From positions 32,001 to 96,000 of the forward strand of contig CAVPCQ010000012.1 in assembly GCA_963702425.1 (NCBI GenBank): 64,000 bases of DNA. The letters are read 5' to 3'. Under the pieces are notes generated by a model. It was not told the DNA's origin and searched no databases. It was given only the letters and a program-made list of their open reading frames with translations. A program made the translations under genes and the position numbers. Positions 1-61,282 of this stretch are shown piece after piece; the stretch's first letter is position 1, and the number at the start of each line of letters is the position of its first letter. The stretch comes from an uncultured Acidobacteriota bacterium (GTDB lineage: Bacteria > Acidobacteriota > Polarisedimenticolia > J045).

Positions 1-1415
1 TTCCACTCCGCCACCGGTGTCGACTTGAGGAACTCGACGACGTGCACCGACACGAGGCGCTCGAGCGATTCGAAACCGGGTAGCGACTGGAGCGATCCGT
101 GCCCGATCAGCAGGTACATCGTTACGGCGATGAAGACCAACGCGGCGACTCGTCGGTACTCAATGCGCTGTCGGAAGAACTTCTGCGAGCGATGGGTCCC
201 GAATACCAGCAGGAGCGCAGCCGAGATGCAGCCCGCCAGCGCCACGCCATCCATACCCCACATCCCGACGAACAGCAGGCTGAGCAGCGTCTTGCCACAT
301 GCGGAGAAGCCTCGTTGCAGTGCGAGAATCTTCGTCGCCTTGGCGTACATCAGCCCGAAGTTCATGTAGGAATAGCAAGCCCCCAGGATCACCGTGACGA
401 CCTGGATACGGGCGATACGCGCCGACCACCAGAATTCGCTCGGCGTGAACACTCGCAACACGGAATCTACACACACTGCGACCACCAAACCGGCGAAGAG
501 CAGGAAGAAGATGTAGGTTGTGAACATCCGACCGCTCTGGGCTTTCGCCCCATCCGGATCAGCCTCCGCCAGTTCGAACTGCTTGGTCACCCAGGAACGC
601 ATGAAGGGCTCAGCGACGAGAAGAGTGATCAAGGTCGGGAACTTCATTCCCATCTGCATCTTGCCGACCCCGCCCAGGCTGATCGAGAAGCGAACGATGA
701 GGCTCTCGATTTGCCCCGCCACCCACGCCACGACTGCCCCCGGAATCAGGGGCCACTGGTAGCGGAGGAGCTCGCGCGCAACGTCCCTCCGGAAGGCGAA
801 CCCGCACTCGCGAGCACAAAGCCAACCGAAAGTCAGAGCCGCACAGATCGCGACGACGAAGTTCGTGAGGAAGTACCCGAGCAGGCCGAGTTTCAAGACG
901 AGCAGCAGCCAGACGTTGAGCCCGATGCTGACCAGTAGCTGCATCAGACCGATCAGGGAATAGGCTACGGACCGGCGCTGGATGAGGAGAATGGATGCGG
1001 CCGTGTTCGCGGTGAGGTCAAACACGAAGGTGCCGAAGCCGAGGCAGATCAGAGGGTAAGACGCCGCGTCCCCGAGGAGGAGTTGGCTCATTGGCTTGCT
1101 GAAGATCATGGCCAGCGTGGCGATCGCCACCGCCGGCACGGCGACGAGGACGATTCCGGTAGGCACGACCGAATTCCGGCGGTCACCGGTCTCGGCATGG
1201 TAGTACCTCATCATCGCGCCACCCACCCCGTTCGCGAGCAGGCTCAGCACGAGTGACAGGCTGGTGTCCACCATCGCGATCTGACCGTAACCCGAATCGC
1301 GAAACAGATGGGCGTAGACTGGGAGCATCAGGAATCCGACGGCCTTGCTGGCGACAACGGCGGAGCCGTACACGCCGGCGTGCTTCAGCGTCGCCCGGGT
1401 GAGTCCGCTCGCCAT
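1..1415 (-). CDS. wzx: Wzx-like oligosaccharide/polysaccharide flippase (MOP superfamily), 3' end beyond left window edge
   Basis: Not in the ORF track (no stop inside the window). Manual translation from ATG at 1415: MASGLTRATLKHAGVYGSAVVASKAVGFLMLPVYAHLFRDSGYGQIAMVDTSLSLVLSLLANGVGGAMMRYY... then many hydrophobic segments and 'ARELLRYQWPLIP', typical of Wzx/RfbX proteins. Starts 2 nt after the PPTase stop. Confidence 0.85.
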   Translation of the reverse strand, partial: MASGLTRATLKHAGVYGSAVVASKAVGFLMLPVYAHLFRDSGYGQIAMVDTSLSLVLSLLANGVGGAMMRYYHAETGDRRNSVVPTGIVLVAVPAVAIATLAMIFSKPMSQLLLGDAASYPLICLGFGTFVFDLTANTAASILLIQRRSVAYSLIGLMQLLVSIGLNVWLLLVLKLGLLGYFLTNFVVAICAALTFGWLCARECGFAFRRDVARELLRYQWPLIPGAVVAWVAGQIESLIVRFSISLGGVGKMQMGMKFPTLITLLVAEPFMRSWVTKQFELAEADPDGAKAQSGRMFTTYIFFLLFAGLVVAVCVDSVLRVFTPSEFWWSARIARIQVVTVILGACYSYMNFGLMYAKATKILALQRGFSACGKTLLSLLFVGMWGMDGVALAGCISAALLLVFGTHRSQKFFRQRIEYRRVAALVFIAVTMYLLIGHGSLQSLPGFESLERLVSVHVVEFLKSTPVAEW

Positions 1416-1417
1416 GG

Positions 1418-2191
1418 TTACGGAATCGCCTGTTGCCCGTCGAAACGAGAGACTGTCGCGATGTTACCCTCGACGACTACGGCCCCGGCATACCCCGGCG
1501 CCGGGTTCAGGGCGAGCATGGACCAGCCGAGCGCTTCCGATGCGTCCCCGTCCACTCGCAGGATCCGCGCCGGCTCGTACGGCCCCACGCTGACCTCGAA
1601 CTGCTCGAGGGGGAAGGACAGACCTTCACCACGAGCCTTGATGAAAGCCTCCTTGCGCGCCCAGCACCGGAAGAAGGCCTCGATCCATTCGTGGCCGTCG
1701 AATCGGTCCAGCTCGGCAATCTCACCGCGGGCGAAGAACCGGCGGGCAACGCCGTCATCGGCCTGCTGGGCCTCGACGAGCTCGACATCGACTCCGACCT
1801 CGCGGTCCTGCGTGATGGCGATCAGGACCAGGCCCGCCGAGTGCGAGAGGTTGAACCTCAGATCGATCGGCAGCGGGCCGGCGAGTTCCGGCTTGCCGTA
1901 GGACGCCAGCCGATACTGGAGCGCCGCCGCCGGCAGGCCGAGATAGCGTGCCAGCACTTCCCGCAGCACACCCCGTCGCGAAATGAACCTCCGGCGGTCG
2001 GTCTCGAACCGGAAACGTCGCGCCCGCGCACGCTCGTTCTCTGCGAGAGTCCCTTCGAGACGACCCTGGTCGCTCCCGAACCGATCGACGTCGACCCGCC
2101 AGACGTGAAGTTCATCAGGCCGCAATGCGAGTGACGCCGGCGGACCGCACCAGGCATCGATGGTCGTCGGGAATCGAAGGGGCGCCGGCAT
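1418..2191 (-). CDS. Sfp-type 4'-phosphopantetheinyl transferase
   Basis: Motifs 'YGKPEL', 'LRFNLSHS', 'EVGVDVE', 'FFRCWARKEAFIKARGEGL'. Confidence 0.95.
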   Translation of the reverse strand: MPAPLRFPTTIDAWCGPPASLALRPDELHVWRVDVDRFGSDQGRLEGTLAENERARARRFRFETDRRRFISRRGVLREVLARYLGLPAAALQYRLASYGKPELAGPLPIDLRFNLSHSAGLVLIAITQDREVGVDVELVEAQQADDGVARRFFARGEIAELDRFDGHEWIEAFFRCWARKEAFIKARGEGLSFPLEQFEVSVGPYEPARILRVDGDASEALGWSMLALNPAPGYAGAVVVEGNIATVSRFDGQQAIP

Positions 2192-2195
2192 GGCG

Positions 2196-2957
2196 CTATG
2201 CCTGGCCGGCTAGGTGGCGCTGAAGATCGCGCGACAGCATCTGGAAGAACAACGCCCGGCAGGATTGGTGGTAGAAATGCCCACCCTGGAACATCCGAAC
2301 GACTACGTCCGCTCTGGTGTGTCGGGCCCACGCCTCCAGATCGGTGCGAGCGACATCCGGATCGCGAAGGCCGCCGTAGGCAGCGATCGGACAGTCGAGC
2401 GGATCGTCCTCGACATGCTCATACGTCTCGCACACCGAGAAATCGGCCCGCAAGGCGGGCAGCAGGAGCTCCATCAGCTCTGCCGACTCTAGGGCCTCCG
2501 GTGGCGTTCCGTCGTAGCGCCGCAGCTCCTCCACGAAGCGTTCGGGACCCAGGTCTCGGATCGGAGCCACTGGATAGGGCAGGTGTGGACCGCGGTGCCC
2601 GGAGACCACCAGCTGAACGGGCTGTGTGCCCGGGTCCCGTCGCAGCAGCCGAGCGAGCTCGAAGGCCAGGAGCGCGCCCATGCTGTGTCCGAACAGGGCA
2701 AAGGGCACGTCGAGGTAGTGGCGAAGGCCGTCCCGCATCGCCTCGGCCAGCCTTCGCGCGTCTCGAAGCGGCGGCTCCTCGATGCGCGCCTCACGGCCCG
2801 GCAGACACACCGCAAGGACCTCCACGCTCTTCGGAAGCTCGCGGCTCCAGTCGCGATACGCCACCGTGCCCCCGCCGGCGTACGGCAGGCAGAACAGCCT
2901 CAGACGAATCCCCGTGCCCGGCCGATGGCGCGCAATCCACGGGTTCTCAGGCTTCAT
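2196..2957 (-). CDS. Type II (editing) thioesterase, GrsT/RifR family
   Basis: 'RLFCLPYAGGG', 'FALFGHSMGALLAFELAR', 'GGHFY'. Start moved from the track's 3191 to ATG 2957 (MKPENPW), which has an AGGAG RBS upstream. Confidence 0.93.
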   Translation of the reverse strand: MKPENPWIARHRPGTGIRLRLFCLPYAGGGTVAYRDWSRELPKSVEVLAVCLPGREARIEEPPLRDARRLAEAMRDGLRHYLDVPFALFGHSMGALLAFELARLLRRDPGTQPVQLVVSGHRGPHLPYPVAPIRDLGPERFVEELRRYDGTPPEALESAELMELLLPALRADFSVCETYEHVEDDPLDCPIAAYGGLRDPDVARTDLEAWARHTRADVVVRMFQGGHFYHQSCRALFFQMLSRDLQRHLAGQA

Positions 2958-3876
2958 GGGGACTCCTGCTGGACAGCGCGGGATCGAGCTGTCCCGGAAG
3001 CGCGACGCTCTGCCGCCTCCACGTTCCGAACCAGTCCGCAATCGCGTCCAAAAGCTCCTTCTGGTTCCCGAGCAGTGTGAAGGTGTGGTCCGTACGGTGC
3101 ACGATCTCATTGCGGTAGCCCGGTGCCGAACGAAGACGCGCCATGCAACTTTCCGCGAACACGTCGAAATAGTCCAGGGAGTGGTCCCCATGCGAGTGCA
3201 CGAACAGGAAGCGGACCTGCCGGTCCAGGAGGGCGTGAAGTTCCCGCGACAACTGGTCCGATATCTTCATCACCTGCTGAGGAGGCGCAACACGGTCTTT
3301 GAACTGGTCAACGAGAACTTTGACCAGCCGTTTGTACTGAATATTCCCCTTCAGCGCTCGCATCCATGCGCCGCGGTCCAGCAGTGACTTCCTCCAGTAC
3401 TGCCTCGCCCAGCTTCGGTTCTTCACATAGCGGTTCCACTCGGAATTCCGGTCCAGCCCCTGGCTGTTCAGCATCACAATTCCGACAACCCGCTCGTCGG
3501 CACATGCCGTCTTGAACGATGTGACCGCGCCCGAACACAGCCCGACCAGGATGAAGCGCGTCATCCCGAAGCGTCTTTCGAGATCGTTCATGACTTCCCG
3601 TGCTTCCACAACGGTGCTCTCCGACCACGTCAGGCGGTCTCGACGTATGCCGCTGTCGCCGATTCCGCTATGATCGAACCTGGCCACCACGAACCCGCAT
3701 GAGGCCAGTCGTCGCGCGATCCTGACCGACATCCGACTCGGGCCGACACGGTGGACGACCCCTGCGTTGAACAGAATCACTGCTGGCAAAGCCTCCTCTT
3801 GGTCAGGGCCCGGCTGTTTCGCAATGATCCCAACCAGAGACGGGGCGGTGCCGAACGTCGTTGCGATCTCAAGCAC
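2947..3876 (-). CDS. Alpha/beta-hydrolase-fold protein with Cys nucleophile elbow (GLCSG); resembles exosortase-A-associated 'hydrolase 1' family
   Basis: 'AVILFNAGVVHRVGPSR', 'RFDHSGIGDS', 'LVGLCSGA', C-terminal 'TDHTF'. Probable GTG start at 3876 overlaps the upstream TGA. Confidence 0.8.
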   Translation of the reverse strand: MLEIATTFGTAPSLVGIIAKQPGPDQEEALPAVILFNAGVVHRVGPSRMSVRIARRLASCGFVVARFDHSGIGDSGIRRDRLTWSESTVVEAREVMNDLERRFGMTRFILVGLCSGAVTSFKTACADERVVGIVMLNSQGLDRNSEWNRYVKNRSWARQYWRKSLLDRGAWMRALKGNIQYKRLVKVLVDQFKDRVAPPQQVMKISDQLSRELHALLDRQVRFLFVHSHGDHSLDYFDVFAESCMARLRSAPGYRNEIVHRTDHTFTLLGNQKELLDAIADWFGTWRRQSVALPGQLDPALSSRSPHEA

Positions 3877-4720
3877 GATGCACCTCGGAAACCCACTGCG
3901 CGATCCGCTGAATGCTCTGAGTCGGTAGCACCATCTCGTACGGCTCGGCAAACCACATCATCGGTTCATGGATCGGTGCCTCGTCCACCTTGGCGCCGAG
4001 CTGGTCCAGGCGCAAGCGAAGATCTCGAAACTCGCCACTATCGCCGTTGTCCACGAGCAGGATGCTCCGTGCTGGCGATCGGCCGATCTGATCCAGGTCG
4101 AACTGCTCGAGCTGGCGCACGGCCTTGTCGGAGAACAGGAAGCCGAGCACCTCGAGCCCACTCTCACGCCCTGCCAGGCGACGGGACTCCTGCTCCCGCC
4201 ATCCGTGCTTGCGCTCGTGCGACGTCTGCTGGGCGCGGATCTCGTCCAAGTAGCGTCGTCCGTCGACCACGGGCTGCCAGAGAGCCAGGGAATCGAGCGA
4301 CCCCGTCCTTTCGCCGACCTTCACCGCCAGGCTCGCCCCCAGGCGCAGCCCGACGACGCCGACCCGGCGGCAGCGGTTTCCCATGTACTCGATGGCCGCG
4401 TTGAGGTCCTCGGTCCAGCGATCGAGATCACCTTCGTCCTCCTCCCCGAGAGAGTCACCGCTGCCGAAGAAGTCGAATCGGAGCACTGGAAAGCCGGCCA
4501 GGTTGAGCTGCCGGGCCAACTGCCGGCATCCTCTGTGACTTCGGCCGTATTCGTGCCCTGGCGGGTACGCGATGACGATACCGTCCTCGCGCGTGTTGCT
4601 GCCGAAGGGCGATTCATGCAGACCAAAAAGACGATCGTTCGGACCAAAGAAGAAGGGAGTCAGGGCCTCGCGCCTCGAGGCTCCGGCACTCTCGTTCCCT
4701 CCGGGCACCTGGGTTGTCAA
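3869..4720 (-). CDS. Alpha/beta-hydrolase-fold protein lacking a Ser nucleophile (GLRLG); resembles exosortase-A-associated 'hydrolase 2' family
   Basis: 'PFFFGPNDRLFGLH', 'PPGHEYGRSHR', 'GFPVLRFDFFGSGDS', 'VVGLRLGASLA', 'LWQPVVDGRRYL'. Probable TTG start at 4720 with AGGAGG RBS just after the NRPS-PKS stop. Confidence 0.8.
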   Translation of the reverse strand: MTTQVPGGNESAGASRREALTPFFFGPNDRLFGLHESPFGSNTREDGIVIAYPPGHEYGRSHRGCRQLARQLNLAGFPVLRFDFFGSGDSLGEEDEGDLDRWTEDLNAAIEYMGNRCRRVGVVGLRLGASLAVKVGERTGSLDSLALWQPVVDGRRYLDEIRAQQTSHERKHGWREQESRRLAGRESGLEVLGFLFSDKAVRQLEQFDLDQIGRSPARSILLVDNGDSGEFRDLRLRLDQLGAKVDEAPIHEPMMWFAEPYEMVLPTQSIQRIAQWVSEVHRA

Positions 4721-4733: not shown

Positions 4734-7700
4734 TCAATTCCGCGGGCGGCCACGGCGGTCGCGGGGCGCGACCAACCGCCCCAGCGCGGACAGCACGCTC
4801 CGCCCGGTCCGGCCTGCCGGCGCCGGTTCCACTTCCGCGACCTTCGCATCGCAGGTGGACGCGATCTGCCCAAGCGTCTGATGGAACAGCGCACGCAGAT
4901 TCACCTTCATTCCCGCCCTGGTCTCGAGGGCCTCCATCACTTTCACCATCACCAGTGAGTTTCCACCGAGTTCCAGGAAGCTGTCGTTGACGCCCACGCG
5001 GTCGATCCCGAGCACCTCGGACCAGATCTCCGCGAGGATAATCTCAGTCGGCGTCTCCGGTGGAACGTAGTCCGTCGGAAGATCGGGGCGCGGGTGACGG
5101 TGCCGCCCAGCCGGAGCCTCGACCATCTCGCTCTCTTCGAGGTCGGGCGACTCGACCGCCGTAGGGAGTCGGTACCGCTGCGGGCGAGCGGACTGAAGGA
5201 GGAGCGAGAGGTCCGTCTCGGAGACCAGGACATTCGGCTCTTCCGCCCCGGCGAGGATCCGACGGAACACTTCGCCACCCTCCCTGTTGGAAATGCCCTG
5301 CGCTTCCGGAAGGGGGACCCCTGCGGCCTCCACAGCCATGCCGACCTCGCGCCAGCGATTCCAGTTCACGGAAACGCAGAAGCGACCGGTGCTCGCCGCG
5401 TGGCTGCGTGCAAAAGCATCGAGGTAGGCGTTCGCCGCGGAGTAGTCCGCCACGCCGGGTACGCCCTTGACCGCGTTGAGGGACGAGCAGAGCACGAAGA
5501 AGTCCAGCTGTTCCTGGCTCAGCAGGCTTTCCAGCACGCGAGTTCCCAGCAGCTTCGGCCCGAAACTGAGCCACGGTCTGTCGGGCGACTGGATCGCCAG
5601 TAGGCCGCCGGCCGTGACACCCGCCGCATGGACCACCCCGTGAATGGAGCCGAAACGGGACCTTGCCTCCCGCAGCACGTTCCGCATTTGAACCGGATCG
5701 GAAACGTCGGCGGCTACCGCCATGACCTGCGCGCCGTTCGCCTCCAGGGTCTGCACGGTCCGAATCCGGCGGCTCACGGGATCCGTCTTGTCGCCGTTGA
5801 GGTGTTGCTCCCACTCCGACCTGTCCGGCAACGGTGTTCGGCCTACGAGGACGAGATTCGCGTGGCACCACTCGGCCAAGCAGTTCGCCAGGACGTACCC
5901 GACGCCGGTCAGACCACCGCTGATGAGATACGTCCCGCGCTCCCGCAGGCGGGGCGTCAAGTCGCCATCCGGTTTGCTCAGGTGTACCGGGGAGAAGGAC
6001 TCCAGCCAACGTCGTCCGCTGCGGTAGGCGACGACAGGGTCGGAGTCGGCGTCGGCCGCGGCGCCGTCGATCTCGCGAATCAGCGCGTCCACTGCCTCCG
6101 GTACCTGCAGCCGCAGGTCCTCTGCCGAGAAGTCAACGTTCCGGCAGGACACCTTGGCGAACTCGTGGCCGATCACTCGAACCGGGCCGAGGATCGTCGC
6201 CTTCTCGGCGCAGATGGACTCTGCGCCCGTCACGTCGTGCACGCCCTCCGTGACCGCGAAGATGCGCAGGCCGCTCGAGGCTTCCGCGTCCGCCAACGCC
6301 CGTACCAGGAAGAACAGGCTGAAGTAGCCAAGATACTGCAACTCCTCGGCGAGTGCGTCATCGTTGCGTATCGCGTCTGAAGCGGGCGTGGTGCCCCACA
6401 GATGAACGGCGAGTCCGGGGAAGCCACCGTCTCGTGCCAGGTCGCCGACGAGGCGATGGTAGTCGTCCTGCGACCGCGGATCGAGAGTGATCCTGTCGCC
6501 CGTTCGCTCGTATCGCGGGCCGGTCGTTACCTCGAACACCCGCCGGCCGTCGGCCTGGAGCCGCTCGAGGCACCGCCGAGCGAAGTCCGAGCCGTCGGCA
6601 AAGACCACGCAGCGGGTTTCGGCGGGACGATCCGACGCAGTCAGGGGCCGCTCTCCGGACAGGCTCGTCCGCCGCCAGGTCCTCGCGTAGTACCAATCGG
6701 CGATGTTCCTTCTCAGGCCCGGGGAACCCTCGCCACGTTCGACCGACTTGTCGAGCCGGTCGATCCAGAAGCGCTGCCGCTGGAACGGGTACGTGGGCAG
6801 GGTCACGCGGCGGCGAGACTCGGCCCGGTAGAAGCCGCACCAGTCAACGCTGACTCCCACCGTCCAGAGACGTGCCAGGGCGCCCATGAGCACCGCCGCA
6901 TCCGAGACCTCCGCCTTCGGATGACGCATCGACGAGATCAGGACCTTGTTCGGATCGCACGCGTCGTGCATGCGCGCTAGTGAGGTCATGATCTGGCCGG
7001 GGCCGACCTCGAGGAGGACCTGGTCCGGCATGCGCAGGATCCGTTCCATCCCCTCGGCGAATCGAACCGGTTCGCGAAGGTGGAGACCCCAGTACTCGGG
7101 GCTCCGGGCCTCCGACTCGGTGATCCAGTCGCCCGTCAGGTTGGACACGAACGGGATTCTCAACGAGCCGAGTTTAGCCTTCCCGACGGCCTCGACGAGC
7201 GGCCCTACGCCGCTCTCCATCAGCCCCGAGTGATACGCGTGGGTGGCGGCCACGCGGCTGCACTCCACACCGTCCCGCGTCAGCCGCTCCTCGAACGCCT
7301 CGATCCGCTTCGGGTCGCCGGAAACGAGGCACAGCGACGGGGCATTGACCGCGGACAGCCAGATCCCCTCCTCCCGTTGCAGCAGTGCGCGAACACGGTC
7401 TTCCGGCAAGGGGATCGATAGCATGGCGCCGTCGGGAGACTTCTCCATCAGACGACCGCGAAGCGCAACGACCCTCAGGGCGTCCTGGTAGCTCAGCACA
7501 CCGGAGACGCACGCGGCCACGTATTCCCCCAGGCTGTGGCCGATGCAGGCAGCGGGCTCGATGCCCCACGACTGCCAGAGTCTCGCCATCGCGTAGTCGA
7601 CGAGGAACACCGCCGGCTGGAAGATCGTGGGGCGGTCCAGCAGGACCGCCGCATCGGCGGGGTCGGCCTCCGCCGGATAGAGGCAACTCCGCAGGTCGAA

Positions 7701-28459: not shown

Positions 28460-28460
28460 G

Positions 28461-47188: not shown

Positions 47189-47189
47189 A

Positions 47190-48545: not shown

Positions 48546-49057
48546 GGCAAGGTCGCTTCACACAGCCCGCCGAGCGGACGCGATCCGGCCGGTCTGCGGT
48601 CGGCCCGGGCCTCTGCGCGCGAAGCACCGCGGACCACGACGAGCTGAAGTGCTCGGTACTCGCTCAGTCCCATTGCGAAGGTGATGAGGCGTGTCGCACC
48701 ATTGTCGCCGAAACGGTCGAACACTGGAGACAGTGCGCGAAAAGGCGCCCGATCACATTCATGCGATTCGAGCACCGAGGGTACGTGAATCGGAGCGGGG
48801 TACGTCTGCTGCTGAGGCTCACCGACCAAGCGCGCCAGAGCGCCGATTCTGAGCGTCTCGTCGTGTCGGCCGTCGGCCGGGCCGACCGTGTCGGCAGATC
48901 GAATCCCCAGGATCTCCCGGCCGCGCGCAGGCGCCTCGGAGGCGCTTCCTCTCGTCATGCGATCCGGCGACCGACTCTCGGCTTGCACGGATTGCCGTGG
49001 TCCGCGTTCGCGGGGCCGAGGTGACGTTTCGTAACACCGATCGCTGTACCTATGCAC
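48542..49057 (-). CDS. Hypothetical protein (uncertain)
   Basis: Fills the gap exactly, overlapping both neighbouring genes as if translationally coupled, but no recognisable motif. Confidence 0.3.
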   Translation of the reverse strand: MHRYSDRCYETSPRPRERGPRQSVQAESRSPDRMTRGSASEAPARGREILGIRSADTVGPADGRHDETLRIGALARLVGEPQQQTYPAPIHVPSVLESHECDRAPFRALSPVFDRFGDNGATRLITFAMGLSEYRALQLVVVRGASRAEARADRRPAGSRPLGGLCEATLP

Positions 49058-51564: not shown

Positions 51565-51790
51565 TCCTGCCTGAAGGCGAGGATCGAAGCGCGGGCTGCC
51601 GCGGCCCCAGAGCGAGTGGCCATGGTGTTCGACGACGAGCATCTCACCTACGCCGAGCTGGACCGTCTCATGGCGCGCGGTGCGGACGGCACCAGCCATG
51701 GCAGGTACCTCCTCGATGGTCGCGGGGTGGTCCCAGGAGTCTGCCTAGAAGCCTGCGTTCCGATTGCGTTCGACGTGCTCAAAGCACGAC
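51565..51790 (+). pseudogene. Decayed fragment of an NRPS adenylation-domain N-terminus
   Basis: Translates as 'SCLKARIEARAAAAPERVAMVFDDEHLTYAELDRL...GRYLLDGRGVVPGVCLE...DVLKA', matching the A1 motif (LTYxEL) and a degraded A2 region; no downstream A motifs. Confidence 0.6.
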
Positions 51791-51968
51791 GCCTCCGCCT
51801 GCTCACAGGCGCTCGGGTGCGCGTCGCACCTTGGTTGATCCCGATCTTCAGAACTCAACCGCTGGATCTGGACCGCGAGTCTCCGTCGCGCGTCACTCCT
51901 GGCGCTCCGCGCGCGCAGCTCTCGCCGGGTTGCGGGCCATTCCTCGGCCCCCACGAAGCGAGCATCGG

Positions 51969-53159: not shown

Positions 53160-53161
53160 TC

Positions 53162-54643
53162 GTGTCGCAGCAGCCCCCAGTAGCTATCCCCGCAGCTCGA
53201 GCATGGAGCGATGGCCTGCCATTGTTGTTCTTCAGCTTGGCGGGCTCGCTGCTACTCGGATCTCTCGTGGCAGGTTCGGTGCTGCTTGACGGGCGGCTCG
53301 AGCGGTTCGTGCCACTTGGCGCTCTCTCGATCGAGAAGCCCTTTCCCTACAGTTTCACGATCGCCCTCCTGTTGGCCCTGAGCGCGGCTGCATTGGCTTC
53401 TACACGCGCGAGTTATCTGTTCGCATTCCGCCACGAATTCGCGATCGCGGCTCTACTCCTTGTTGGTGCCGTCAACGGCCTCAACATCCAGAGTCTCGAC
53501 CCGACCGACCCGGTCATCCTGATCGCCCTTTACGCATGGGTGATCTTTTTCGTGTTCGAGAGGCAACCGTTTCGAGTACCGACGACGGTCTTGGTGCTCT
53601 GCCTGGCGGTGCTTGCCTTTTCGGTGCTGTCCGCAGCGAACGGCGGCATGACAACACTCATCGGCCTCCGCACCTTCATCATTCGTTTGCTGCTGGTCGT
53701 TCTACTCGCGTCGTGGATCGCTGCGACGGGCAGGACCCGGTTCACGGTTCGCTTGATCATAGCAATCGCCGTCGCCTCCGCTGTGATAGGGCTGGCGACG
53801 AGCGTGATTTACCTGGGATCGGGAGATGTTCTGAGCACCAATGACACGGTGGCGGAGGTTTACAAGTCCACGCCGTTTGGGCGAATGGTACGCGCCACCG
53901 GCTTCACATCGACGTCGCAGTGCCTCGCGCACCTGCTGTTGATCGGAGTCGCGCTTGCGCTGTTCGCGCCGATGCGGCCTCTGTGGCGCTTCGTGACGGT
54001 GCTGATCATGATTGCGGGGATAGGATGGACATTCACGATCGGGGGCTATCTCACTCTCGCCGGCGTCCTGGCGATGTGGTTGTTCCTGCGGTGGCCCGAA
54101 AAGACGCTGCATCTCATACTGGCGACCGCAGGCGTCGGCTGCGCGGCGTATCTCAGCGGCTGGGCAGGCTACGCATACGAGGAAATCATCCTCGCGCTCG
54201 GAGGCAAGGGATTCCAGGACCGGTTGGTGACCCTTTCTGAGGGACTGGTGGCGATTCAGCGCCACCCCTGGCTCGGCGTAGGGCTGCGGAATACCTACCG
54301 CGTCACTCCCAGCTTCGTCCACAGCACCTACCTGCAGCTCGCCTCGGAGATCGGAATTCCGGGAGCCATTGCGTTTGCCGGTCTGGTGACCTTCCCGCTG
54401 GCGCGCCTGGCCGCTGCCGTAAAGGGAATGCCCCGCGGCGAGCGCCAGAGCTGGCTCAAGGCGTTGTTTCTCGCATCGTTCACACTGATCCTTCACCTTT
54501 CGATCGAACCGTTCTACGACAACTACATGACATGGGCGTTCATCGGGGTGGCTGCGGGCGCGGTCGGCGAGATGAGCGCCGCTCGTTCCCGGAAGTCGAG
54601 CATTGCCACCAGCGCGACGAGCCAAACCCTCGGTCTGCAGTAA
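53162..54643 (+). CDS. O-antigen ligase/Wzy-family polytopic membrane protein (probable polysaccharide polymerase)
   Basis: About 12 hydrophobic segments; 'RATGFT', 'DRLVTL..GL.AIQRHPWLGVG', 'HSTYLQLASEIGIPG' match the Wzy_C pattern. Confidence 0.85.
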   Translation: MSQQPPVAIPAARAWSDGLPLLFFSLAGSLLLGSLVAGSVLLDGRLERFVPLGALSIEKPFPYSFTIALLLALSAAALASTRASYLFAFRHEFAIAALLLVGAVNGLNIQSLDPTDPVILIALYAWVIFFVFERQPFRVPTTVLVLCLAVLAFSVLSAANGGMTTLIGLRTFIIRLLLVVLLASWIAATGRTRFTVRLIIAIAVASAVIGLATSVIYLGSGDVLSTNDTVAEVYKSTPFGRMVRATGFTSTSQCLAHLLLIGVALALFAPMRPLWRFVTVLIMIAGIGWTFTIGGYLTLAGVLAMWLFLRWPEKTLHLILATAGVGCAAYLSGWAGYAYEEIILALGGKGFQDRLVTLSEGLVAIQRHPWLGVGLRNTYRVTPSFVHSTYLQLASEIGIPGAIAFAGLVTFPLARLAAAVKGMPRGERQSWLKALFLASFTLILHLSIEPFYDNYMTWAFIGVAAGAVGEMSAARSRKSSIATSATSQTLGLQ

Positions 54644-54774: not shown

Positions 54775-55998
54775 GTGCGAGAGCCACTGACCGATTCTGA
54801 CTACTCGCTCGTCGACTACCTCGTCGCTGTGTATCGACGGGCGTGGGTGGTGTTGCTCGTAACCGCGGTTGCTGGCGGCACCGCCTGGCTGGTAAGCGAA
54901 CGTGCCGTGCCTGTCTATGAAGCGCACGCGGCGTTTTTCGTCCCGCAAGACGTCGCATCCTCGATGGGCCTCTCGAGCAAACTTACCAACGCGCGCCTGC
55001 CCTCGGGATCGGAAAACGAGGCGCGTGCCTACGCGAAGATCCTCCAGCAGTCCGACGCTTACCTCGCGGCCTTGCGGAAGGTCCCGGACAAGAACCCAGC
55101 CCGAATGGAGCGGGACATTGACGTGATCGCCAGCCGTGAAGCGGTGATCAGAGTTTTCTCCCGCGATCCCAATCCGAGAGTTGCCGCGGACATTGCGAAT
55201 GCTCTCGTTGACTACTTCAACGAGTTCCAGCTTCAGCTCGTCCGAGAAGAGCTTATTCGATCGATGAAGAAGATTGAGGACCAGATCATCCTCGTGGAAG
55301 AGGACCTCACGAAGGGGCTAGCCGACCGTCAGGCCATGCTCGAGAGCAAGAGAATCGTGTTGCTGCCGATGAACACCGCGCAGCTTGAGGGCGACCGAAA
55401 CCAGTTGTCGATGCAGTTGTCGCAGACCCGGGTCAAGATGTCGTCGATCACGGAACAGTTACTCGGACTTGAACGACAGATGGCGGAGGAGGCAAAGCGT
55501 TACGGCGGCGGCCAGTTGCTCGACTCGCGACAGGATTCGTTTTACAACCAGCTGCGGCAGCGGAAATCGTTGCTCGAGATCGACCAGAAAGGCCTGGAGG
55601 CCGAAATCCGGCAGCTCGTCACCGCGATCCAAGCGACCGACCAGACGATTCGAATCGGGCCCGCGATGCTATCGCAGTTCGCGGCCATCGACGATCGGCT
55701 CGCCACGCTGCGACAAGATCGTGAGCGTTACGAATCGACGCTACGCGAACTGCGGACCCAGTCGCTCGATCTTCGGTCCCCGGCACTCGTCGTTCGTGTT
55801 GCCACACCCCCAAGGGTGCCGTCGTTCCCGAAGAAGTCACTGAATATCATCATCGGCGCGGTCGCCGGCTTCCTGGCCGGGATCGCGCTGGCGCTGATGA
55901 TCGAGGCTTTCGATCGACAGCGGCGCTGGTCTGCGTCGACGGCATCCCGAACCGATGAGCTCGACACTCACCCGCCGACCGATGTTTCCGAACCGTGA
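54775..55998 (+). CDS. Wzz/GumC-like polysaccharide co-polymerase (chain-length determinant)
   Basis: N-terminal TM ('LVDYLVAVYRRAWVVLLV'), 'PVYEA.A', long coiled coil, C-terminal 'ATPPRVPSFPKKSLNIIIGAVAGFLAGIALA' (Pro-rich motif + TM); no tyrosine kinase domain. Confidence 0.88.
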   Translation: MREPLTDSDYSLVDYLVAVYRRAWVVLLVTAVAGGTAWLVSERAVPVYEAHAAFFVPQDVASSMGLSSKLTNARLPSGSENEARAYAKILQQSDAYLAALRKVPDKNPARMERDIDVIASREAVIRVFSRDPNPRVAADIANALVDYFNEFQLQLVREELIRSMKKIEDQIILVEEDLTKGLADRQAMLESKRIVLLPMNTAQLEGDRNQLSMQLSQTRVKMSSITEQLLGLERQMAEEAKRYGGGQLLDSRQDSFYNQLRQRKSLLEIDQKGLEAEIRQLVTAIQATDQTIRIGPAMLSQFAAIDDRLATLRQDRERYESTLRELRTQSLDLRSPALVVRVATPPRVPSFPKKSLNIIIGAVAGFLAGIALALMIEAFDRQRRWSASTASRTDELDTHPPTDVSEP

Positions 55999-56426: not shown

Positions 56427-57449
56427 TCACGCAGGACGCTCACCGAAGAAGAAGTCCTCCATGCACCGGCCGAACGCTCCGCGGCTCCAGCTTCCGATGA
56501 CGAAGCGCGGCAGCCGCAGGGCGTCGCTGTCGGCTTGAAGCGGGCACGGGATCGTCGTGCAGGCGGCCGCGAACCCGAGTTCTCGGACAATCCGGTCCGT
56601 CGACTCGTTGAAGTCCCCGTACGGATGAGAGTGTGCCCGCACTGGGCCTCCAATGATCTCCTCAATCCGGTCGCGAGCCGCACTGATCTCTTCACGTTGA
56701 TCCTGTGGACTCAGTCGGGATAGTCTCGTGTGGGACACGGTGTGGCAGCCGATGTCGATCAGGTCACATGCGCTCAGTCTGCTGATCTCGTCAGCCGTCA
56801 TTGGACGGCGACCTTCGTCGACCTGGCGCCGATGATTCACCGAGGCGGCAAGACGCTCCATGACCGCCCCTCGCTCCGCACCGCGCATTGAGCTGAGTAG
56901 ACGGTGAATGTCGTCGTAGGCTCGCCGCCGATCTCTCCCAGAGCCGAGCGCCCACCGGTACTCACCGCCCTCGATGCGAAGCGCCAGACTCTCCGGCCCA
57001 CACCGGCTGTGCAGCAGGATGTCCTTCAGCTCTTCCCACCAGAATCCGAAGGTGTCTCCCGTATATCCACTCGCGACGAAGACCGTCGCAGGAACGCCGG
57101 CAGACTCGAGCATTGGAAGCGCCCGCGTCAAGTTATCGATGTAGCCGTCATCGAAGGTCACGGCGACGGCTCGATCCGGGAAGGACCCACGTTGCAAGCA
57201 ACTCACTAGGTCGAGCAACGAAATCGGCCGGCAGCTCTGTCGAATGTAGTCCAAGTGTTGCTCGAACTTGTTCGGTGAGACGCTGGTACCGTGGATGTCT
57301 CCGGCGGGCTCGGCCACACGGTGGTAGGAGAGAATGACGGCAGCGGGCTGCCGCCCACTCCAACGTCGGATCGGCCTCATCAATCGACGGGTCGTATTCC
57401 GGACGCGTCTGATCGTTCTCAAGAGTGCCTCGGATCGAGCGGAGATCAT
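56427..57449 (-). CDS. Polysaccharide deacetylase (CE4/NodB family)
   Basis: 'ILSYHRV', 'AVTFDDGY.DN', 'ATVFV', 'IGCHTVSHTRL', 'HPYG'. Start uncertain (57449 or 57533). Confidence 0.92.
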   Translation of the reverse strand: MISARSEALLRTIRRVRNTTRRLMRPIRRWSGRQPAAVILSYHRVAEPAGDIHGTSVSPNKFEQHLDYIRQSCRPISLLDLVSCLQRGSFPDRAVAVTFDDGYIDNLTRALPMLESAGVPATVFVASGYTGDTFGFWWEELKDILLHSRCGPESLALRIEGGEYRWALGSGRDRRRAYDDIHRLLSSMRGAERGAVMERLAASVNHRRQVDEGRRPMTADEISRLSACDLIDIGCHTVSHTRLSRLSPQDQREEISAARDRIEEIIGGPVRAHSHPYGDFNESTDRIVRELGFAAACTTIPCPLQADSDALRLPRFVIGSWSRGAFGRCMEDFFFGERPA

Positions 57450-57962
57450 ACCAGCACCGGCGAGTCCGTTGCGGTGCCCCGCTCCTGCCGCACCCATGCC
57501 TGTCGTCTCTCGCGGCCTTGGGACCCCGGACATTCCATGGGACAGATTGCCGCCAACGCGCGATCGGAACAGAGGGTGAGCCGTAGCGAGGAGTTACGCT
57601 GCAAGCTGGGCGTTGGGACCCACTTCACGGCCCGCCGTTACGCGTATCTGCGGATGAACACGGGCGCTGCCTGAGACCACCGCGCTGCCGGCTACGTCGA
57701 GGGCACGGCGGAGTTCACGGAACCGTAACGGCCCTTTCAGGACCGTACCGTTCCGGATCTGACGCCTGGGGCGCTGTGTGGGACTTCCCGCTGCACGGCT
57801 GGAACACCGGCCTCGCGGCCGACGGCGAGGACCACCGCTGCGACATCTTCCGGAAGGTGCCCAGCGCCGCCCGGGCCCACTCCGCTGCTGGCTTGGTCGA
57901 GGGCCGGGTGGAGGTCGCAGAACGGTCCCCCAGTTGCTACGGCTCTCCTGACCCGGAGCCAT

Positions 57963-57978: not shown

Positions 57979-58059
57979 TTCATCCATCGCGTCTCCAGGG
58001 CCCGACGGTCGAACCAACCGTGCTCACGGCGGCCCTAACCCGGCCTGAAAGAGGAAGCA

Positions 58060-60033
58060 ATGAGAGGTCGAAGCTCGTTCTCTCGTCGGAGGTCGCACCG
58101 CTCGATCGGTCTCGCGGTCGCAACCGCCTGCACGGCGATGATCGCGGCTTGGTGCGCAGACACGGCCAGTTCAATCGCGGAAACTCCGGGCCCAGGGTCA
58201 CCGATCCGGATCTTCCATCTTGCTTCAAGAACAGACTATTCGTCCGCGGAATGGTCCGTCTTGACTCAGAGGTCCAGCGCGGTCGTCGGCCTCGACAACC
58301 ACGGCTACGACTTCCCCGGAGCCTTGCCGCGATTCGTGCGGGAGGCCCCGAACACCCCGGCGTTCGCGTTCTCCGACTCGCTCGCGTTCAGTCCGGATTG
58401 GTGCGATGACCGATTCTCTGCGGTCGACGTCGACGAGGCGTCTTTCTTCCATTCCTCCGAGCCTGCCTCGATGGTCGCGCGGGCCGTCGCCTCCTCGAAA
58501 GTCGCGCTCTACTGGCACGCCGATAGTCGCGAGAGCCCGGAAGCACATGTCGGAAGTTGCGCCTACCGCGACTACTACAAGACCGTTGCCTACCTCCTGG
58601 AGTACTCATCGACACCGGGCGGTTCCTACCGGCTCCTGGCCGAGATTCCTGCTCACTCTCAGACGGCGGACCAGACCCCGATCTATTCGTGGACTTGCTC
58701 ATCTTGCAGTACGAGACGGTACTACCGCGTCCGCTCCCGCCTATCCGATGGAACGATCGTCCCCTACTCGTGGCCCGTTCGCCCCCAGAGCATGTTTCCG
58801 GCAATTTTCTATCTGGTGTTGCGCCCCGCCGGACCGGGTGTCGTCGAATTCGAGGCGCTCGTTCGCACAGACTCCCTGCTGCCTCCCAGCCAGTTCATCG
58901 TCGAGCGGCAGGCCCGCTACGAGAAGAGCGTGTTCTACCCGGTCGGCTCGGCCACTACGTACACGCCGATCTCCAGCAAGTTCGCAACATACTCGGGGAC
59001 CGTCGCGCTCGGCCGAAACTCCTATGTTCGTGTTCGCTTCGGAGCCGTCTCGTATCCGAATGGCAGCGATTCGATTCTCTATTCGGGGGGAACGAGCCGT
59101 CGCAACAACCGTTCGTTGACGAGGTATGGATCGATGGCCCTGCGTCCGACGAGCGTCATTCTGAGGGACGTACTTGCCGGCCGAGCGCGGGCCGTCGTCG
59201 ACCTTGGAGCAGACGGGCTCTTTCTGGACTTCGTTCACGATAACGTCGGGCGTCTCTACAACGGAGGAAACTCCGGGAACCTGATTGCCCCTGTCTCAAC
59301 CTCCGAGGAATCCGAGTTCGGACCCGGATACCGAGCCGCTGCAGAGGCCCTGCTCGACAATCTGCACCAGCAGGTCCCCGCGGCTTCGCGCCTGTTCAAC
59401 GGACTCTACGTCCCGACCACGACCCGGAGTGCGCGCGAGGCCTTCGTGCCGCGAACCGAAGGGATGTTTGTCGAATACTTCGCTTTCGACAATCTCGGAC
59501 GGAACCTCGATGACCGGATCCCCGAGGCCTTCGACGCCATCATCGCCCACTCCCATCGACCTCCGACGGACTTGAACGACACCTCGCGCGACAGGCTCTC
59601 TCTCCTGGCAACGAGAGGAAGTGCGAATGAGGTCGACAAGCGCCGGATCGGACTTGCCCTCTATCTCCTCGTTTCCCATCCGAACGTGATGTGGCAGTAC
59701 TCGACGGCCGATTACTACAGGGACGTCACGTGGCTTCCCGAGTTCAGCATTCCCCTCGGCCCGCCGCTGATCCCCGCCCTGAATGCCTACTCGGATTTGT
59801 ACTGGGGCCGGACGGACGCAATGCTCCGGCGCGCCTTCGAGAACGGCCTGATCATCTACAACCACAGCGACTCGTCGCATACGATCGACCTGGGGGAGCC
59901 GCTTTCCCCCGTTCTGCTCCAGCCTGGTCTCGACCCCATCCTCGGTGGGACTGGAAGCTACGGCGTCGGTATCCCCGTAAGCCGGATCGAGATCCCCTCC
60001 AAGGACGCGGTCATCTTGCTACGGAATCCCTGA
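58060..60033 (+). CDS. Secreted putative glycoside-hydrolase-like (TIM-barrel) protein with inserted beta-rich domains
   Basis: N-terminal signal-like segment; 'GADGLFLD', 'LFNG', 'EGMFVEYF', 'RRAFENGLIIYN' resemble uncharacterised GHL-type proteins; central FN3-like 'RYYRVRS' region. Confidence 0.6.
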   Translation: MRGRSSFSRRRSHRSIGLAVATACTAMIAAWCADTASSIAETPGPGSPIRIFHLASRTDYSSAEWSVLTQRSSAVVGLDNHGYDFPGALPRFVREAPNTPAFAFSDSLAFSPDWCDDRFSAVDVDEASFFHSSEPASMVARAVASSKVALYWHADSRESPEAHVGSCAYRDYYKTVAYLLEYSSTPGGSYRLLAEIPAHSQTADQTPIYSWTCSSCSTRRYYRVRSRLSDGTIVPYSWPVRPQSMFPAIFYLVLRPAGPGVVEFEALVRTDSLLPPSQFIVERQARYEKSVFYPVGSATTYTPISSKFATYSGTVALGRNSYVRVRFGAVSYPNGSDSILYSGGTSRRNNRSLTRYGSMALRPTSVILRDVLAGRARAVVDLGADGLFLDFVHDNVGRLYNGGNSGNLIAPVSTSEESEFGPGYRAAAEALLDNLHQQVPAASRLFNGLYVPTTTRSAREAFVPRTEGMFVEYFAFDNLGRNLDDRIPEAFDAIIAHSHRPPTDLNDTSRDRLSLLATRGSANEVDKRRIGLALYLLVSHPNVMWQYSTADYYRDVTWLPEFSIPLGPPLIPALNAYSDLYWGRTDAMLRRAFENGLIIYNHSDSSHTIDLGEPLSPVLLQPGLDPILGGTGSYGVGIPVSRIEIPSKDAVILLRNP

Positions 60034-61282
60034 CGGCGGCGTGCTCTGCGATCACCCGGCGGTAGAGGGCGAAAGTACGGTCCAGGTGGCAGGTCTGCGT
60101 GAAGCGCTCACGCTGCAATCGTAGTCCGGCCTGCCCGAGGCTCGCCCGCAGAGCGGGATCTCGGATCAGCCGCCGCATGGCCGCCGCCAGCGCGTCCGTG
60201 TCGCCGGGAGTCACCGCGTAACCGTTGACGCCGTCCCGCAGCCACTCGGTGACGCCCCCGGAATCGAAGGCGACGATCGGCCTACTGAACGACATGGCCT
60301 CGACACCGACCATCCCGAAGGACTCGGGCGCCAGCGAGGGGAGAACGACGAATCCGCAGGCTCGATAGTGCGACGCGAGGTCGTCGGCAGCGGCCTCACC
60401 CACGAACTGTACGCGCCCACCGAGCTCGCGGCGCTCCACGAGTTCTCGCGCCCGTCCACGCAACGGGCCGTCGCCGACGACGGTGGCCTGCCAGTTTTCC
60501 CCCGAGAGCCGGGCCAGCGCTTCGACCAGGCTCAGGATGCCCTTCTCCGCACTGAGGCGGCCGACGAACAGGATTCCAGGTGGCTCCTCTCCCTTCGACG
60601 CCGGGGCGACTGTCGCCTCGAAACGTGAGAACAGCGGTACGACACTGATCCGATCCGCGGCGATGCCGTTGACGACCAACACGCTCTTGAGGTAGGAACT
60701 CGGAACCACGATTGCCGGCATCTTCCTGTACATTCGCAGGTAAACCGGATGACTCAGGACACGAAGCACGTCGTCGCGCAGCCCCTCCACGTCACCAGGG
60801 CGGTGGCACCCGAATAGCACACATCCGAAGTCAAGTCGACGCGTACACTGCCGGCCGTCGGGGAGCAGCTTGGTGCGCCTGAAGCAAACCGGTGTGACGT
60901 CGTGGAACATCCACACGATCGGCCGCGCCGCATGCAAACGGCTCACGACGATCGGGTGCAATGTCGGGATCGAGTGCAGGTGGATGATGTCCGGCTTCTC
61001 TTGATCGACGATTCGCAGGAGTTGCGCTGATACCTCGGGGCGGTAACGGTAGCGGAAGGACTTCAGTAGGTAGGACCCATCGTGCCCGGTGGCTTCTTCT
61101 GTCGGGCCGCGTTTCAATCCCACGACGGCGATGTCGCAGCCCTGCTCGCGCTGCCCCGCGATCAGCTGGGACAGGTACACGGCGAGGCCGCCGCCGCGTG
61201 CGATACACAAGCCTCGAACCTCTCGCTCGGTGCCCTTCAGCACCAGCTCTTGGTCCTTGTCGTGAACGTGTAGGATCTTCAT
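60011..61282 (-). CDS. Glycosyltransferase family 4
   Basis: 'MKILHVH', 'LFVGRLSAEKG', 'PSLAPESFGMVGVEAMSFSRP'. Start set at ATG 61282. Confidence 0.92.
   Translation of the reverse strand: MKILHVHDKDQELVLKGTEREVRGLCIARGGGLAVYLSQLIAGQREQGCDIAVVGLKRGPTEEATGHDGSYLLKSFRYRYRPEVSAQLLRIVDQEKPDIIHLHSIPTLHPIVVSRLHAARPIVWMFHDVTPVCFRRTKLLPDGRQCTRRLDFGCVLFGCHRPGDVEGLRDDVLRVLSHPVYLRMYRKMPAIVVPSSYLKSVLVVNGIAADRISVVPLFSRFEATVAPASKGEEPPGILFVGRLSAEKGILSLVEALARLSGENWQATVVGDGPLRGRARELVERRELGGRVQFVGEAAADDLASHYRACGFVVLPSLAPESFGMVGVEAMSFSRPIVAFDSGGVTEWLRDGVNGYAVTPGDTDALAAAMRRLIRDPALRASLGQAGLRLQRERFTQTCHLDRTFALYRRVIAEHAAVRDSVAR

Follow-up and report, generated by a model that had tools for sequence, protein, structure and literature searches.

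How does a peptide-polyketide assembly line that ends in a bare carrier domain release its product, and where does the product go when the line lies among polysaccharide genes? The question is raised by a 64,000-nucleotide stretch of DNA from an uncultured Acidobacteriota bacterium, positions 32001-96000 of contig C12 in its genome G000 (hereafter the window, whose coordinates are used unless stated otherwise). Four synthetase genes, two alpha/beta-fold hydrolase genes and a gene for a Wzx-like flippase belong to one tightly packed gene train there, with sugar genes on both sides of it. Our results indicate that the line is a large member (ten modules, 44 kb) of a widespread class of lines without a terminal thioesterase (TE), which are probably unloaded by a Cys-active/Arg-dead protein pair, and that in this case it is wired into a Wzx/Wzy polysaccharide island. 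The explanation that we favour for the whole system leads from the line through the pair to a sugar acceptor and from there to Wzx/Wzy export, and we give it a probability of roughly 0.42.

To establish the domain composition of the line, the proteins were scanned with Pfam both at full length and cut into overlapping pieces of 480 residues. All four synthetases are encoded on the minus strand. Synthetase A (42143..45418) is a loading module with condensation, adenylation and thiolation domains (C-A-T). Synthetase B (28461..42146) has the order TubC_N dock-C-A(MT)-T-C-A-T-C-A(MT)-T-E, with methyltransferase (MT) and epimerisation (E) domains, and synthetase C (17396..28459) the order C-A-T-C-A-T-KS-AT-KR-ACP, which adds ketosynthase (KS), acyltransferase (AT), ketoreductase (KR) and acyl carrier protein (ACP) domains. 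Synthetase D (4734..17399) reads dock-C-A-T-E-C-A-T-KS-AT-KR-ACP. The eight nonribosomal peptide synthetase (NRPS) and two polyketide synthase (PKS) modules bear out the ten-unit line of the initial annotation, and so does the end of the line, where the last ACP of synthetase D is followed by about 40 residues and then by the stop codon. The Pfam scans found no PF00975 in synthetases A to D, and synthetase D ends without any of the canonical release domains, that is a terminal thioesterase, a reductase or a terminal condensation domain. The only thioesterase is a stand-alone type II enzyme (TEII) encoded outside the synthetases.

Both KS domains retain Cys-His-His, both AT domains carry GHSLG and HAYH, which we take to be nearest the malonyl type, and both KR domains retain the catalytic tyrosine motif (YSAAN in synthetase D). 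The two E-like domains are each other's best matches (41%), as are the C domains that follow them (41%), a pattern that would fit two epimerised residues. The first C domain of the line reads HHIVFEG (residues ~150-156 of protein A, window 44900-45000, minus strand) and the other seven read HHxxxDG or HHxxxDA. A six-frame motif search of the window found no MbtH-like gene.

The initial annotation went too far in concluding that no release enzyme is present, because the two hydrolase genes that begin 13 nt beyond the last ACP gene are the obvious candidate. The best NCBIfam matches of their products are the two exosortase A system-associated hydrolases, TIGR03101 for hydrolase 2 (3869..4720, minus strand; 89.5 bits vs a curated cut-off of 202.75) and TIGR03100 for hydrolase 1 (2947..3876, minus strand; 97.3 bits vs 168.45), both under the cut-off. 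Several homologues are called "exosortase A-associated hydrolase 2" in their source annotations, and the pair is distantly homologous to the exosortase-A hydrolase pair, a family first defined in exosortase-A polysaccharide loci. Hydrolase 1 has the motif GLCSG with Cys114 and His264, and both the cysteine of G-x-C-S-G and the histidine are found in 72/72 homologues. Hydrolase 2 has Arg126 at the nucleophile position (GLRLG), where 73 of 76 homologues also have arginine. The window pair therefore has every feature of an unnamed Cys/Arg pair class: G-x-C-x-G with a histidine, arginine in hydrolase 2, and a position directly after a carrier protein. Membership of an exosortase system was considered for the pair and rejected, since PF09721 gave no match in G000, a genome that is 91% complete.

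Hydrolase 1 is presumed to be the catalytic subunit and hydrolase 2 its non-catalytic partner. The AlphaFold2 model of hydrolase 1 (mean predicted local distance difference test score, pLDDT, 90.8) has the generic alpha/beta-hydrolase fold and a helical lid, and its solved structural relatives are generic esterases and lipases only, at template modelling (TM) scores of ~0.5-0.57, with the fungal trans-acting thioesterase DcsB among them. When the two proteins were modelled together, the interface score ipSAE was 0.90 (0.90, 0.90 and 0.88 in the separate runs) against 0.00 for the best control, at least 76% of the contacts agreed across runs, and the partner pLDDT was at least 80. The mark set for this predictor is attained by 58/80 solved complexes and by 2/110 mismatched pairs, and is a rough guide here since our own alignments were used. 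In the predicted interface, residues 87-89 and 168-195 of hydrolase 2 lie against residues 38-51 and 261-273 of hydrolase 1, beside His264. The prediction supports, and does not show, that the two proteins form a heterodimer. A cysteine site favours transfer over hydrolysis. We consider it likely that hydrolases 2 and 1 together form a two-subunit off-loading device whose single live site is based on cysteine.

A wider survey shows how often such pairs are found at the end of assembly lines. An alignment of hydrolase-2 homologues served as the query against one genome of each species. Of 599 candidate stretches, 571 were confirmed, and the best 80 loci were analysed; the loci cited below with numbers from L031 upwards are among these 80 and come from various phyla. 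The 80 include Planctomycetota, Gemmatimonadota, Acidobacteriota, Myxococcota, Chloroflexota, Pseudomonadota, Actinomycetota and others. The hydrolase-1 family itself has 6506 cluster representatives at E<=1e-3 and 547 clusters (50% identity) at E<=1e-30. In 77/80 loci the gene for hydrolase 1 comes after that for hydrolase 2, in the same orientation and no more than 600 nt away; the two are fused in one open frame in 21, and a 4-nt overlap was computed for 27 of the 56 unfused pairs. In 41/80 loci the end of a carrier domain lies under 700 nt upstream of the pair, and in 36/80 this domain belongs to a modular NRPS/PKS line. In the loci without an assembly line, stand-alone ACPs are present. 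No pair was found around 40 TE-terminated control lines (0/40). This recurrence directly after a carrier domain, read from gene order, points to a widespread off-loading device for TE-less lines, and it shows that the arrangement in the window is not unique, as the initial annotation had supposed.

A quick maximum-likelihood tree of 72 hydrolase-1 sequences separates two forms of the pair. The line-less forms, mostly fused, make up one clade (17 rows, support 99) and the NRPS/PKS-linked forms the other (55 rows). The window protein falls into the mostly NRPS/PKS-linked clade of unfused pairs, with L051 as its nearest row. Line-less loci mostly combine a fused pair with an ACP, an acyl-CoA-dehydrogenase-like protein, DUF1839 and a GH2_N2-like protein, and often adjoin CE4/DUF3473, FemAB-type GNAT, Acyl_transf_3, glycosyltransferase, Wza, Wzy or Wzx genes. 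In L037, L052, L066, L074 and L082, a conserved cassette over ~6 kb upstream of the fused pair has the order small ACP, acyl-CoA-dehydrogenase-like protein, unknown protein of ~315 aa, DUF1839, GH2_N2-like protein of ~850 aa and fused hydrolase 2-hydrolase 1, often followed by CE4/DUF3473, FemAB-type GNAT, DegT, GT4 or Acyl_transf_3 genes. No PLP decarboxylase was seen beside the pair in the annotated loci. A single locus in the metagenome-assembled genome (MAG) of a Gemmatimonas (L081:1-20681) has two pairs: an NRPS/PKS line precedes one of them, and the other comes after an A-ACP protein and has an exosortase (PF09721) gene directly next to it.

The pair is a real and apparently uncharacterised off-loading system, and its class is uncharacterised as far as our literature searches reach. 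The only mention we found is in the portion of PMC3584217 that describes the Burkholderia cenocepacia Bep exopolysaccharide cluster, where the TIGR03100-like protein Bcam1334 is listed as a predicted hydrolase. The cassette is absent from the main text of the 2006 PEP-CTERM paper (PMC1569441), where no hydrolase, ligase, acyl carrier or decarboxylase is named.

One local tie between the line and the polysaccharide genes is the gene train itself. Its nine genes (four synthetases, two hydrolase genes, TEII, a 4'-phosphopantetheinyl transferase (PPTase) and wzx) either overlap or stand no more than 13 nt apart at every junction, exactly as had been claimed. Synthetases A and B (42143-42146) and C and D (17396-17399) are joined by ATGA overlaps, and B and C are separated by 1 nt at 28460. 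In the 13-nt gap between synthetase D and hydrolase 2, a GGAGG stands ahead of the TTG start at 4720. The genes of hydrolases 2 and 1 overlap by 8 nt and those of hydrolase 1 and TEII by 11 nt; gaps of 4 nt and 2 nt follow between TEII and PPTase and between PPTase and wzx. The TEII (2196..2957, minus strand; PF00975, 165 bits; ATG at 2957) has its GxSxG motif, GHSMG, at residue 90 and is 51% and 53% identical to the TEII genes adjoining the pairs of L051 and L031, respectively. The PPTase (1418..2191, minus strand) is of the Sfp/HetI type (PF01648, 61.2 bits, and PF22624), with HetI as its best NCBIfam match (188 bits, under its cut-off). The train closes with a PST/MOP flippase gene (1..1415, minus strand, the final 150 nt lying left of the window) whose 521-aa wzx-like product matches PF01943 (33.4 bits vs a cut-off of 28.2) and has nine hydrophobic segments. 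It is the sole flippase-like gene of the island.

Two open reading frames (ORFs) upstream of the train, of 199 aa (45431-46030) and 171 aa (48542-49057), have no Pfam or NCBIfam family match, and their G+C at the second and third codon positions (GC2 0.62 and 0.59, GC3 0.69 and 0.67) departs from that of real genes (GC2 ~0.45-0.49, GC3 0.75-0.83). The 199-aa frame is probably not a gene, and the absence of family matches and of a coding signature leads us to read the two as spacers of 618 nt (45419..46036) and 504 nt. The 618-nt spacer, a possible promoter region for the NRPS-to-wzx train in which a promoter scan gave nothing above shuffled sequence, separates the NRPS genes from the upstream sugar genes, and the 504-nt spacer divides these sugar genes from each other. 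The claim that the line is embedded in a glycan locus and coupled to it in one operon consequently stands in its first part, with sugar genes on both sides, while tight coupling is restricted to the stretch from synthetase A to wzx.

On the upstream flank we recovered the phosphoglycosyltransferase, four glycosyltransferases of family 4 (GT4), Wzy-like, Wzz-like and family 4 carbohydrate esterase (CE4) genes that had been listed there. Two GT4 genes lie nearest the line on the minus strand (46037..47257, start uncertain, PF00534, 136 bits; 47190..48545, PF00534, 78.6 bits). Beyond them is the initiating phosphoglycosyltransferase (Bac_transf; 49050..50891, minus strand; TIGR03025, 256 bits, under cut-off), a fusion in which a sugar-1-phosphate nucleotidyltransferase and hexapeptide-repeat part (residues ~33-376; PF00483 at 34-228) precedes a small Bac_transf domain (PF02397, 202 bits, residues 419-606). 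The next GT4 is stp2-like (51831..53159, plus strand, likely start near 51969; PF13692, 146 bits; TIGR03088, 189 bits, under cut-off) and 54% identical to a GT4 of L051. In the divergent intergenic region ahead of it, ~50 residues (51622-51780, plus strand) resemble an adenylation-domain N-terminus (36% over 53 aa, E 8e-4), which could be what is left of an adenylating enzyme or a chance resemblance. A membrane protein of the Wzy-type polymerase/O-antigen-ligase family (53120..54643, plus strand; PF04932, 42.6 bits; ten hydrophobic segments), a Wzz-type chain-length determinant (54775..55998, plus strand; PF02706, 31 bits; TIGR03007, 54 bits, under cut-off) and a CE4 polysaccharide deacetylase (56427..57533, minus strand; PF01522, 89 bits) follow. 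The flank continues with a GHL15-like glycoside hydrolase with an N-terminal hydrophobic segment (58060..60033, plus strand; PF14885, 39.6 bits) and the fourth GT4 (60011..61405, minus strand; PF00534, 130 bits). An FG-GAP repeat protein (62188..63969, minus strand; PF01839, 178.7 bits) stands at the island's edge, its membership being uncertain; an FG-GAP/ASPIC protein is also encoded downstream of the L031 pair.

The locus extends beyond the left end of the window, where the remainder of wzx is accompanied by genes for a sulfotransferase, another CE4, a further GT4, NTP_transf_5, an HprK-like protein, Wza (PF02563, 69 bits, with SLBB) and GH39. Neither CE4 protein of the island has a signal-like or hydrophobic N-terminal segment according to a crude hydropathy scan. 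By these family matches, which in the window lie above the Pfam cut-offs, one locus appears to hold the whole Wzx/Wzy-pathway set: phosphoglycosyltransferase, Wzx, Wzy, Wzz and Wza. The sulfotransferase (L004:12485-13738, plus strand) is a separate gene just beyond wzx and divergent from it, and shows 40-42% identity to sulfotransferase stretches that lie within or next to three pair-terminated lines from Planctomycetota MAGs (L031, L032 and L035). Near it, the HprK-related kinase A-like gene (TIGR04352, 41.6 bits, under cut-off) convergently overlaps the NTP_transf_5 gene (PF14907, 137 bits) at L004:6173-8372, that is contig C12 24173-26372. A trio of HprK-like, NTP_transf_5 and sulfotransferase genes is typical of lasso-peptide or PqqD-type cassettes.

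No ABC, MFS or RND exporter and no regulator was found among the window ORFs scanned with Pfam, as the initial annotation had stated, and the part of the island left of the window likewise has no such exporter. An exporter just to the left had been named as a finding that would refute the proposal; the DNA of normal G+C beyond the island holds an alpha/beta hydrolase gene, an MFS transporter gene at ~15 kb from wzx on its left side, and unrelated genes. On the other side, an RND pump gene, likewise outside the low-G+C stretch, is found ~14 kb past the right end of the window.

This stretch sets the island apart from its genome (5.1 Mb in 42 contigs, 91% complete): G+C drops to 62-68% over contig positions ~19 kb to 93 kb, vs ~71% genome-wide. 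The EF-Tu of this genome is most similar (84-88%) to proteins assigned to Acidobacteriota MAGs, a rough indication of the phylum. Adjoining the island are two transposase genes (DDE_5 and DUF772; L003:7920-10353, contig C12 ~103.9-106.4 kb), 8-10 kb right of the window and nearer to it than the RND pump gene. A tRNA scan of the window and flanks and an Rfam scan of the window found nothing, and a promoter/terminator scan of the window gave nothing above shuffles. The hydrolase-2-like protein has a close homologue in 0/40 related genomes, including 0/4 of the same genus (best non-self E 1.4e-6, 32% identity), and in these four genomes the Wzx match is only 24% identical and the phosphoglycosyltransferase is matched in its catalytic domain only (47-48%). 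Without close same-genus homologues of the searched genes, the island seems to be strain-variable. Wider searches for syntenic relatives were little help: a metagenome scan gave one close match, on a 2.4-kb contig that is too short, and one 74%-identical homologue is on a 28.8-kb contig.

How, then, might the product leave the line? By their architecture, the four synthetases would link eight amino acids and two ketide units into a chain that has two N-methylated residues, two epimerised ones and two beta-hydroxy-gamma-amino (statine-type) units and ends as a beta-hydroxyacyl thioester on the last ACP. The heterodimer of the two downstream alpha/beta-fold proteins would take the chain off this ACP, with Cys114 of hydrolase 1 accepting it by transthioesterification and hydrolase 2, with arginine at its nucleophile site, packed as a non-catalytic partner on the active-site side. 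The acyl-enzyme would then most likely hand the chain to a sugar acceptor at the cytoplasmic face. This acceptor would be a lipid-linked repeat unit begun by the phosphoglycosyltransferase and lengthened by the GT4 enzymes, and one of its sugars may be de-N-acetylated beforehand by one of the two CE4 enzymes without a signal-like segment. The decorated unit would be flipped by the Wzx of the same gene train and passed on to Wzy, Wzz and Wza. We infer these chemical steps, the acceptor and the fate of the product from features read directly in our analysis, namely the position of the pair after the carrier domain, its family, cysteine site and predicted heterodimer, the content, order and coupling of the genes with wzx last and the sole flippase gene, the Wzx/Wzy set, the two CE4 genes and the recurrence of such adjacency elsewhere. 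Transfer of the chain to a glycan acceptor, the step on which the explanation turns, can be put forward only tentatively. It is also possible, and we suggest it with similar caution, that the complete NRPS/PKS product is grafted onto the lipid-linked unit before flipping, so that the cell shows a peptide-polyketide-decorated or lipopeptide-anchored polysaccharide, and that the same pair carries out this reaction, or a lesser form of it, in many phyla.

Several other loci combine the pair with polysaccharide genes. In the Planctomycetales locus L051, the line and the pair are accompanied by a PPTase, a TEII, a GH39 (34% identical), the GT4, Wzy and Wzz; no homologue of the window Wzx was found in that genome. 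The Longimicrobiales locus L071 has a PPTase, line, pair, Wzx, GINT1_N protein and Wzy_C, and this Wzx is the only homologue of the window Wzx in its genome. A PF13440-type flippase directly adjoins the pair in L084, L099 and L070. The pair is found with a CE4 and a GT4 in L036, with an epimerase, GT4s, a GT2, a CE4 and a MurJ-like gene in L038, before four GT4 genes in L062 and before a polysaccharide pyruvyltransferase in L049; CE4 genes also adjoin the pairs of L061, L065, L066 and L074. Mapped onto the hydrolase-1 tree, flippase adjacency takes 5 changes to explain and polysaccharide context takes 17, which suggests that the adjacency is not one inherited accident.

Whether these neighbours are more than chance was judged against 40 loci, all from the phylum of the window, that surround a cis thioesterase domain of an NRPS/PKS line (39/40 with C, A or KS hits). 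Neighbours were detected by tblastn, as similarity to this window's genes only. A polysaccharide or flippase hit lies within 3 kb in 14/80 pair loci and 0/40 controls (p=0.005; 12/78 against 0/40, p=0.008, with two sister pairs collapsed), within 1.5 kb in 11/80 and 0/40 (p=0.015), and within 5 kb in 17/80 and 1/40 (p=0.006); flippase-like hits occur in 6/80 and 0/40. Anywhere within +-10 kb the counts are 21/80 and 6/40 (p=0.25). The same queries give a polysaccharide hit in 6.2% of the 20-kb segments of G000 that lie off the island, vs 18/80 pair loci. About one in six pair loci, a minority, thus has sugar-polymer or flippase genes directly beside the pair, and TE ends have none. The linkage of homologous clusters to wzx and glycosyltransferase genes, whose absence would by the initial annotation have refuted its proposal, stands at close range and does not differ significantly from the controls over +-10 kb.

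The evidence for a glycan link is mixed, and a number of our observations weigh against the explanation that we favour. A general +-10 kb enrichment for polysaccharide genes was considered and did not survive the comparison with the TE-terminated lines, leaving direct adjacency only. In the tblastn screen, 31 of the 36 NRPS/PKS-terminal pairs have no polysaccharide gene within 10 kb and 5 have one. Many phyla are represented among the test loci and one among the controls. The loci are related and not independent, so that the p-values are overstated. The 618-nt spacer sets the NRPS genes apart from the upstream sugar genes, and no acceptor-specific transferase was recognised. The NCBIfam scores of the pair remain below their cut-offs, PF09721 had no match in G000 at its 91% completeness (PEP-CTERM proteins were not searched for), and full-text searches found no paper on the function of the pair and no chemistry for any family member. 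A mosaic origin of the island is possible, given its low G+C, the nearby transposases and the lack of close same-genus homologues of hydrolase 2, wzx and the phosphoglycosyltransferase. A wzx homologue (84% identity) and a hydrolase-2 homologue (81% identity), each reported from a contig of 8239 nt, speak for the link, but the common length only suggests that they share one contig. The proposal that the chain is moved to a lipid-linked glycan and exported with it is thus strengthened by the pair's family, cysteine, adjacency and companion wzx, and held back by the pairs without glycan genes, the null result at +-10 kb and the lack of an exosortase match in this genome.

These points give room to other explanations, of which the main one is that the product is a free metabolite. 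The pair would then replace a thioesterase in trans, by hydrolysis or lactonisation, and the line would have come to lie in a variable sugar island by juxtaposition or co-regulation, the glycan remaining unmodified. The large share of NRPS/PKS-terminal pairs away from polysaccharide genes favours this reading, as do the lack of a significant +-10 kb excess and the 6/40 control lines of this phylum that are near polysaccharide genes anyway. The spacer upstream of the NRPS genes, the low G+C of the island, the nearby transposases, the lack of close same-genus homologues of its searched genes and the generic esterase/lipase-like fold of hydrolase 1, with DcsB among its structural matches, point the same way. 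It is harder to see on this account why the island's sole flippase-like gene is translationally close-coupled to the NRPS train, why adjacency within 3 kb is confined to the pair loci, why a whole clade of the family has no assembly lines and is often found amid polysaccharide genes, and how the product would leave an island whose nearest ABC, MFS or RND exporters are the two distant ones described above. We regard a free metabolite as a serious if somewhat doubtful alternative.

The other rivals are smaller. The product could be a small glycoconjugate, a (lipo)peptide glycosylated by some of the GT4 enzymes, as in mycobacterial glycopeptidolipids, or else an amphiphile that the Wzx-like MOP protein exports directly across the membrane; in both cases the polymer pathway would be separate. 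A PST/MOP-family gene does close the NRPS train, and PF01943 and PF13440 flippases adjoin the pairs of L070, L071, L084 and L099 without a full Wzy pathway being visible in each. The line also begins with a C domain, as lipopeptide lines do (lipo-initiation), but this domain has the deviating motif HHIVFEG, and the island, with phosphoglycosyltransferase, Wzy, Wzz and Wza, has only one flippase-like gene to serve its polymer. We consider this alternative improbable. Still less probable, indeed very much so, is a release assisted by the sulfotransferase, in which the beta-hydroxyl of the last ketide would be sulfated on the ACP and the pair would hydrolyse the chain with decarboxylative elimination to a terminal alkene. 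Sulfation, decarboxylative elimination and a terminal alkene are the hallmarks of CurM/olefin-synthase off-loading. The KS-AT-KR-ACP end of the line would give the beta-hydroxyacyl-ACP needed, the sulfotransferase gene lies just past wzx, and its relatives are found in or beside the three Planctomycetota lines. However, it is a separate, divergent gene and not a domain after the ACP as in CurM, the matching stretches in L031 and L035 are mid-line and not terminal, the enzyme could equally sulfate the polysaccharide, and the catalytic subunit here has a cysteine where known thioesterases of that type have a serine.

If the pair is a general device, many lines described as "TE-less" or "incomplete" would gain a defined release step, in a family of the size given above, and the pair would offer a new type of two-subunit enzyme for study. 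Should the chain reach a glycan, the products would form a natural-product class that is invisible to extract-based screening, since they are polymer-bound, and bacteria would have a new way to decorate or anchor surface polysaccharides. The question can be addressed at the bench, as cultured carriers of the pair include Corallococcus spp. (L064, L072, L073, L078), Variovorax sp. WDL1 (L094), Cupriavidus (L087, L091), Ideonella sp. YS5 (L093) and Rhodococcus sp. KRD162 (L097).

Among the closest known systems is the TIGR03101/TIGR03100 pair, whose members are described as 'hypothetical equivalogs'. It shares with the window pair the best family matches, the order of hydrolase 2 then hydrolase 1, direct adjacency (the 8-nt overlap here, and adjacent genes in 77/80 related loci), the link to a carrier protein and often the polysaccharide genes. 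Unlike it, the window pair scores under the family cut-offs, occurs in a genome in which no exosortase was found and belongs to a separate, mostly NRPS/PKS-linked clade. A second comparison is with Dlt, which carries out D-alanylation of teichoic acids, and AlmEFG, which places glycine on Vibrio lipid A. In these systems too an adenylating enzyme loads a carrier and the acyl group goes to a glycopolymer or glycolipid, so that in the explanation we favour the ten-module line would replace one ligase. They differ in that one amino acid is moved, through an MBOAT protein (DltB) or the lipid A acyltransferase AlmG, and without a Cys/Arg pair; no MBOAT or AlmG-type acyltransferase family was found among the island ORFs scanned with Pfam. 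Nod factor N-acylation offers a third parallel. There, NodB is a CE4 deacetylase, NodA an acyltransferase and NodF/NodE a special ACP and KS, so that a cytoplasmic CE4 exposes the amine of a sugar before a dedicated carrier supplies its acyl group, and the two CE4 enzymes of the island, without signal segments in the crude scan, would suit such a role. The window CE4 matches NodB weakly (TIGR04243, E 9e-9, far under cut-off), no NodA-like protein was found, and the acceptor would be a lipid-linked repeat unit instead of a free chito-oligosaccharide. Finally, trans-acting or otherwise unusual off-loading enzymes such as DcsB and CurM resemble the system described here in that, where a cis release domain is missing, an alpha/beta-hydrolase gene beside the last carrier is the candidate. 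The likeness in structure is generic, and what distinguishes the window device is that it would be an obligate two-protein (or fused) unit, in which a Cys-His site is joined to a dead paralogue.

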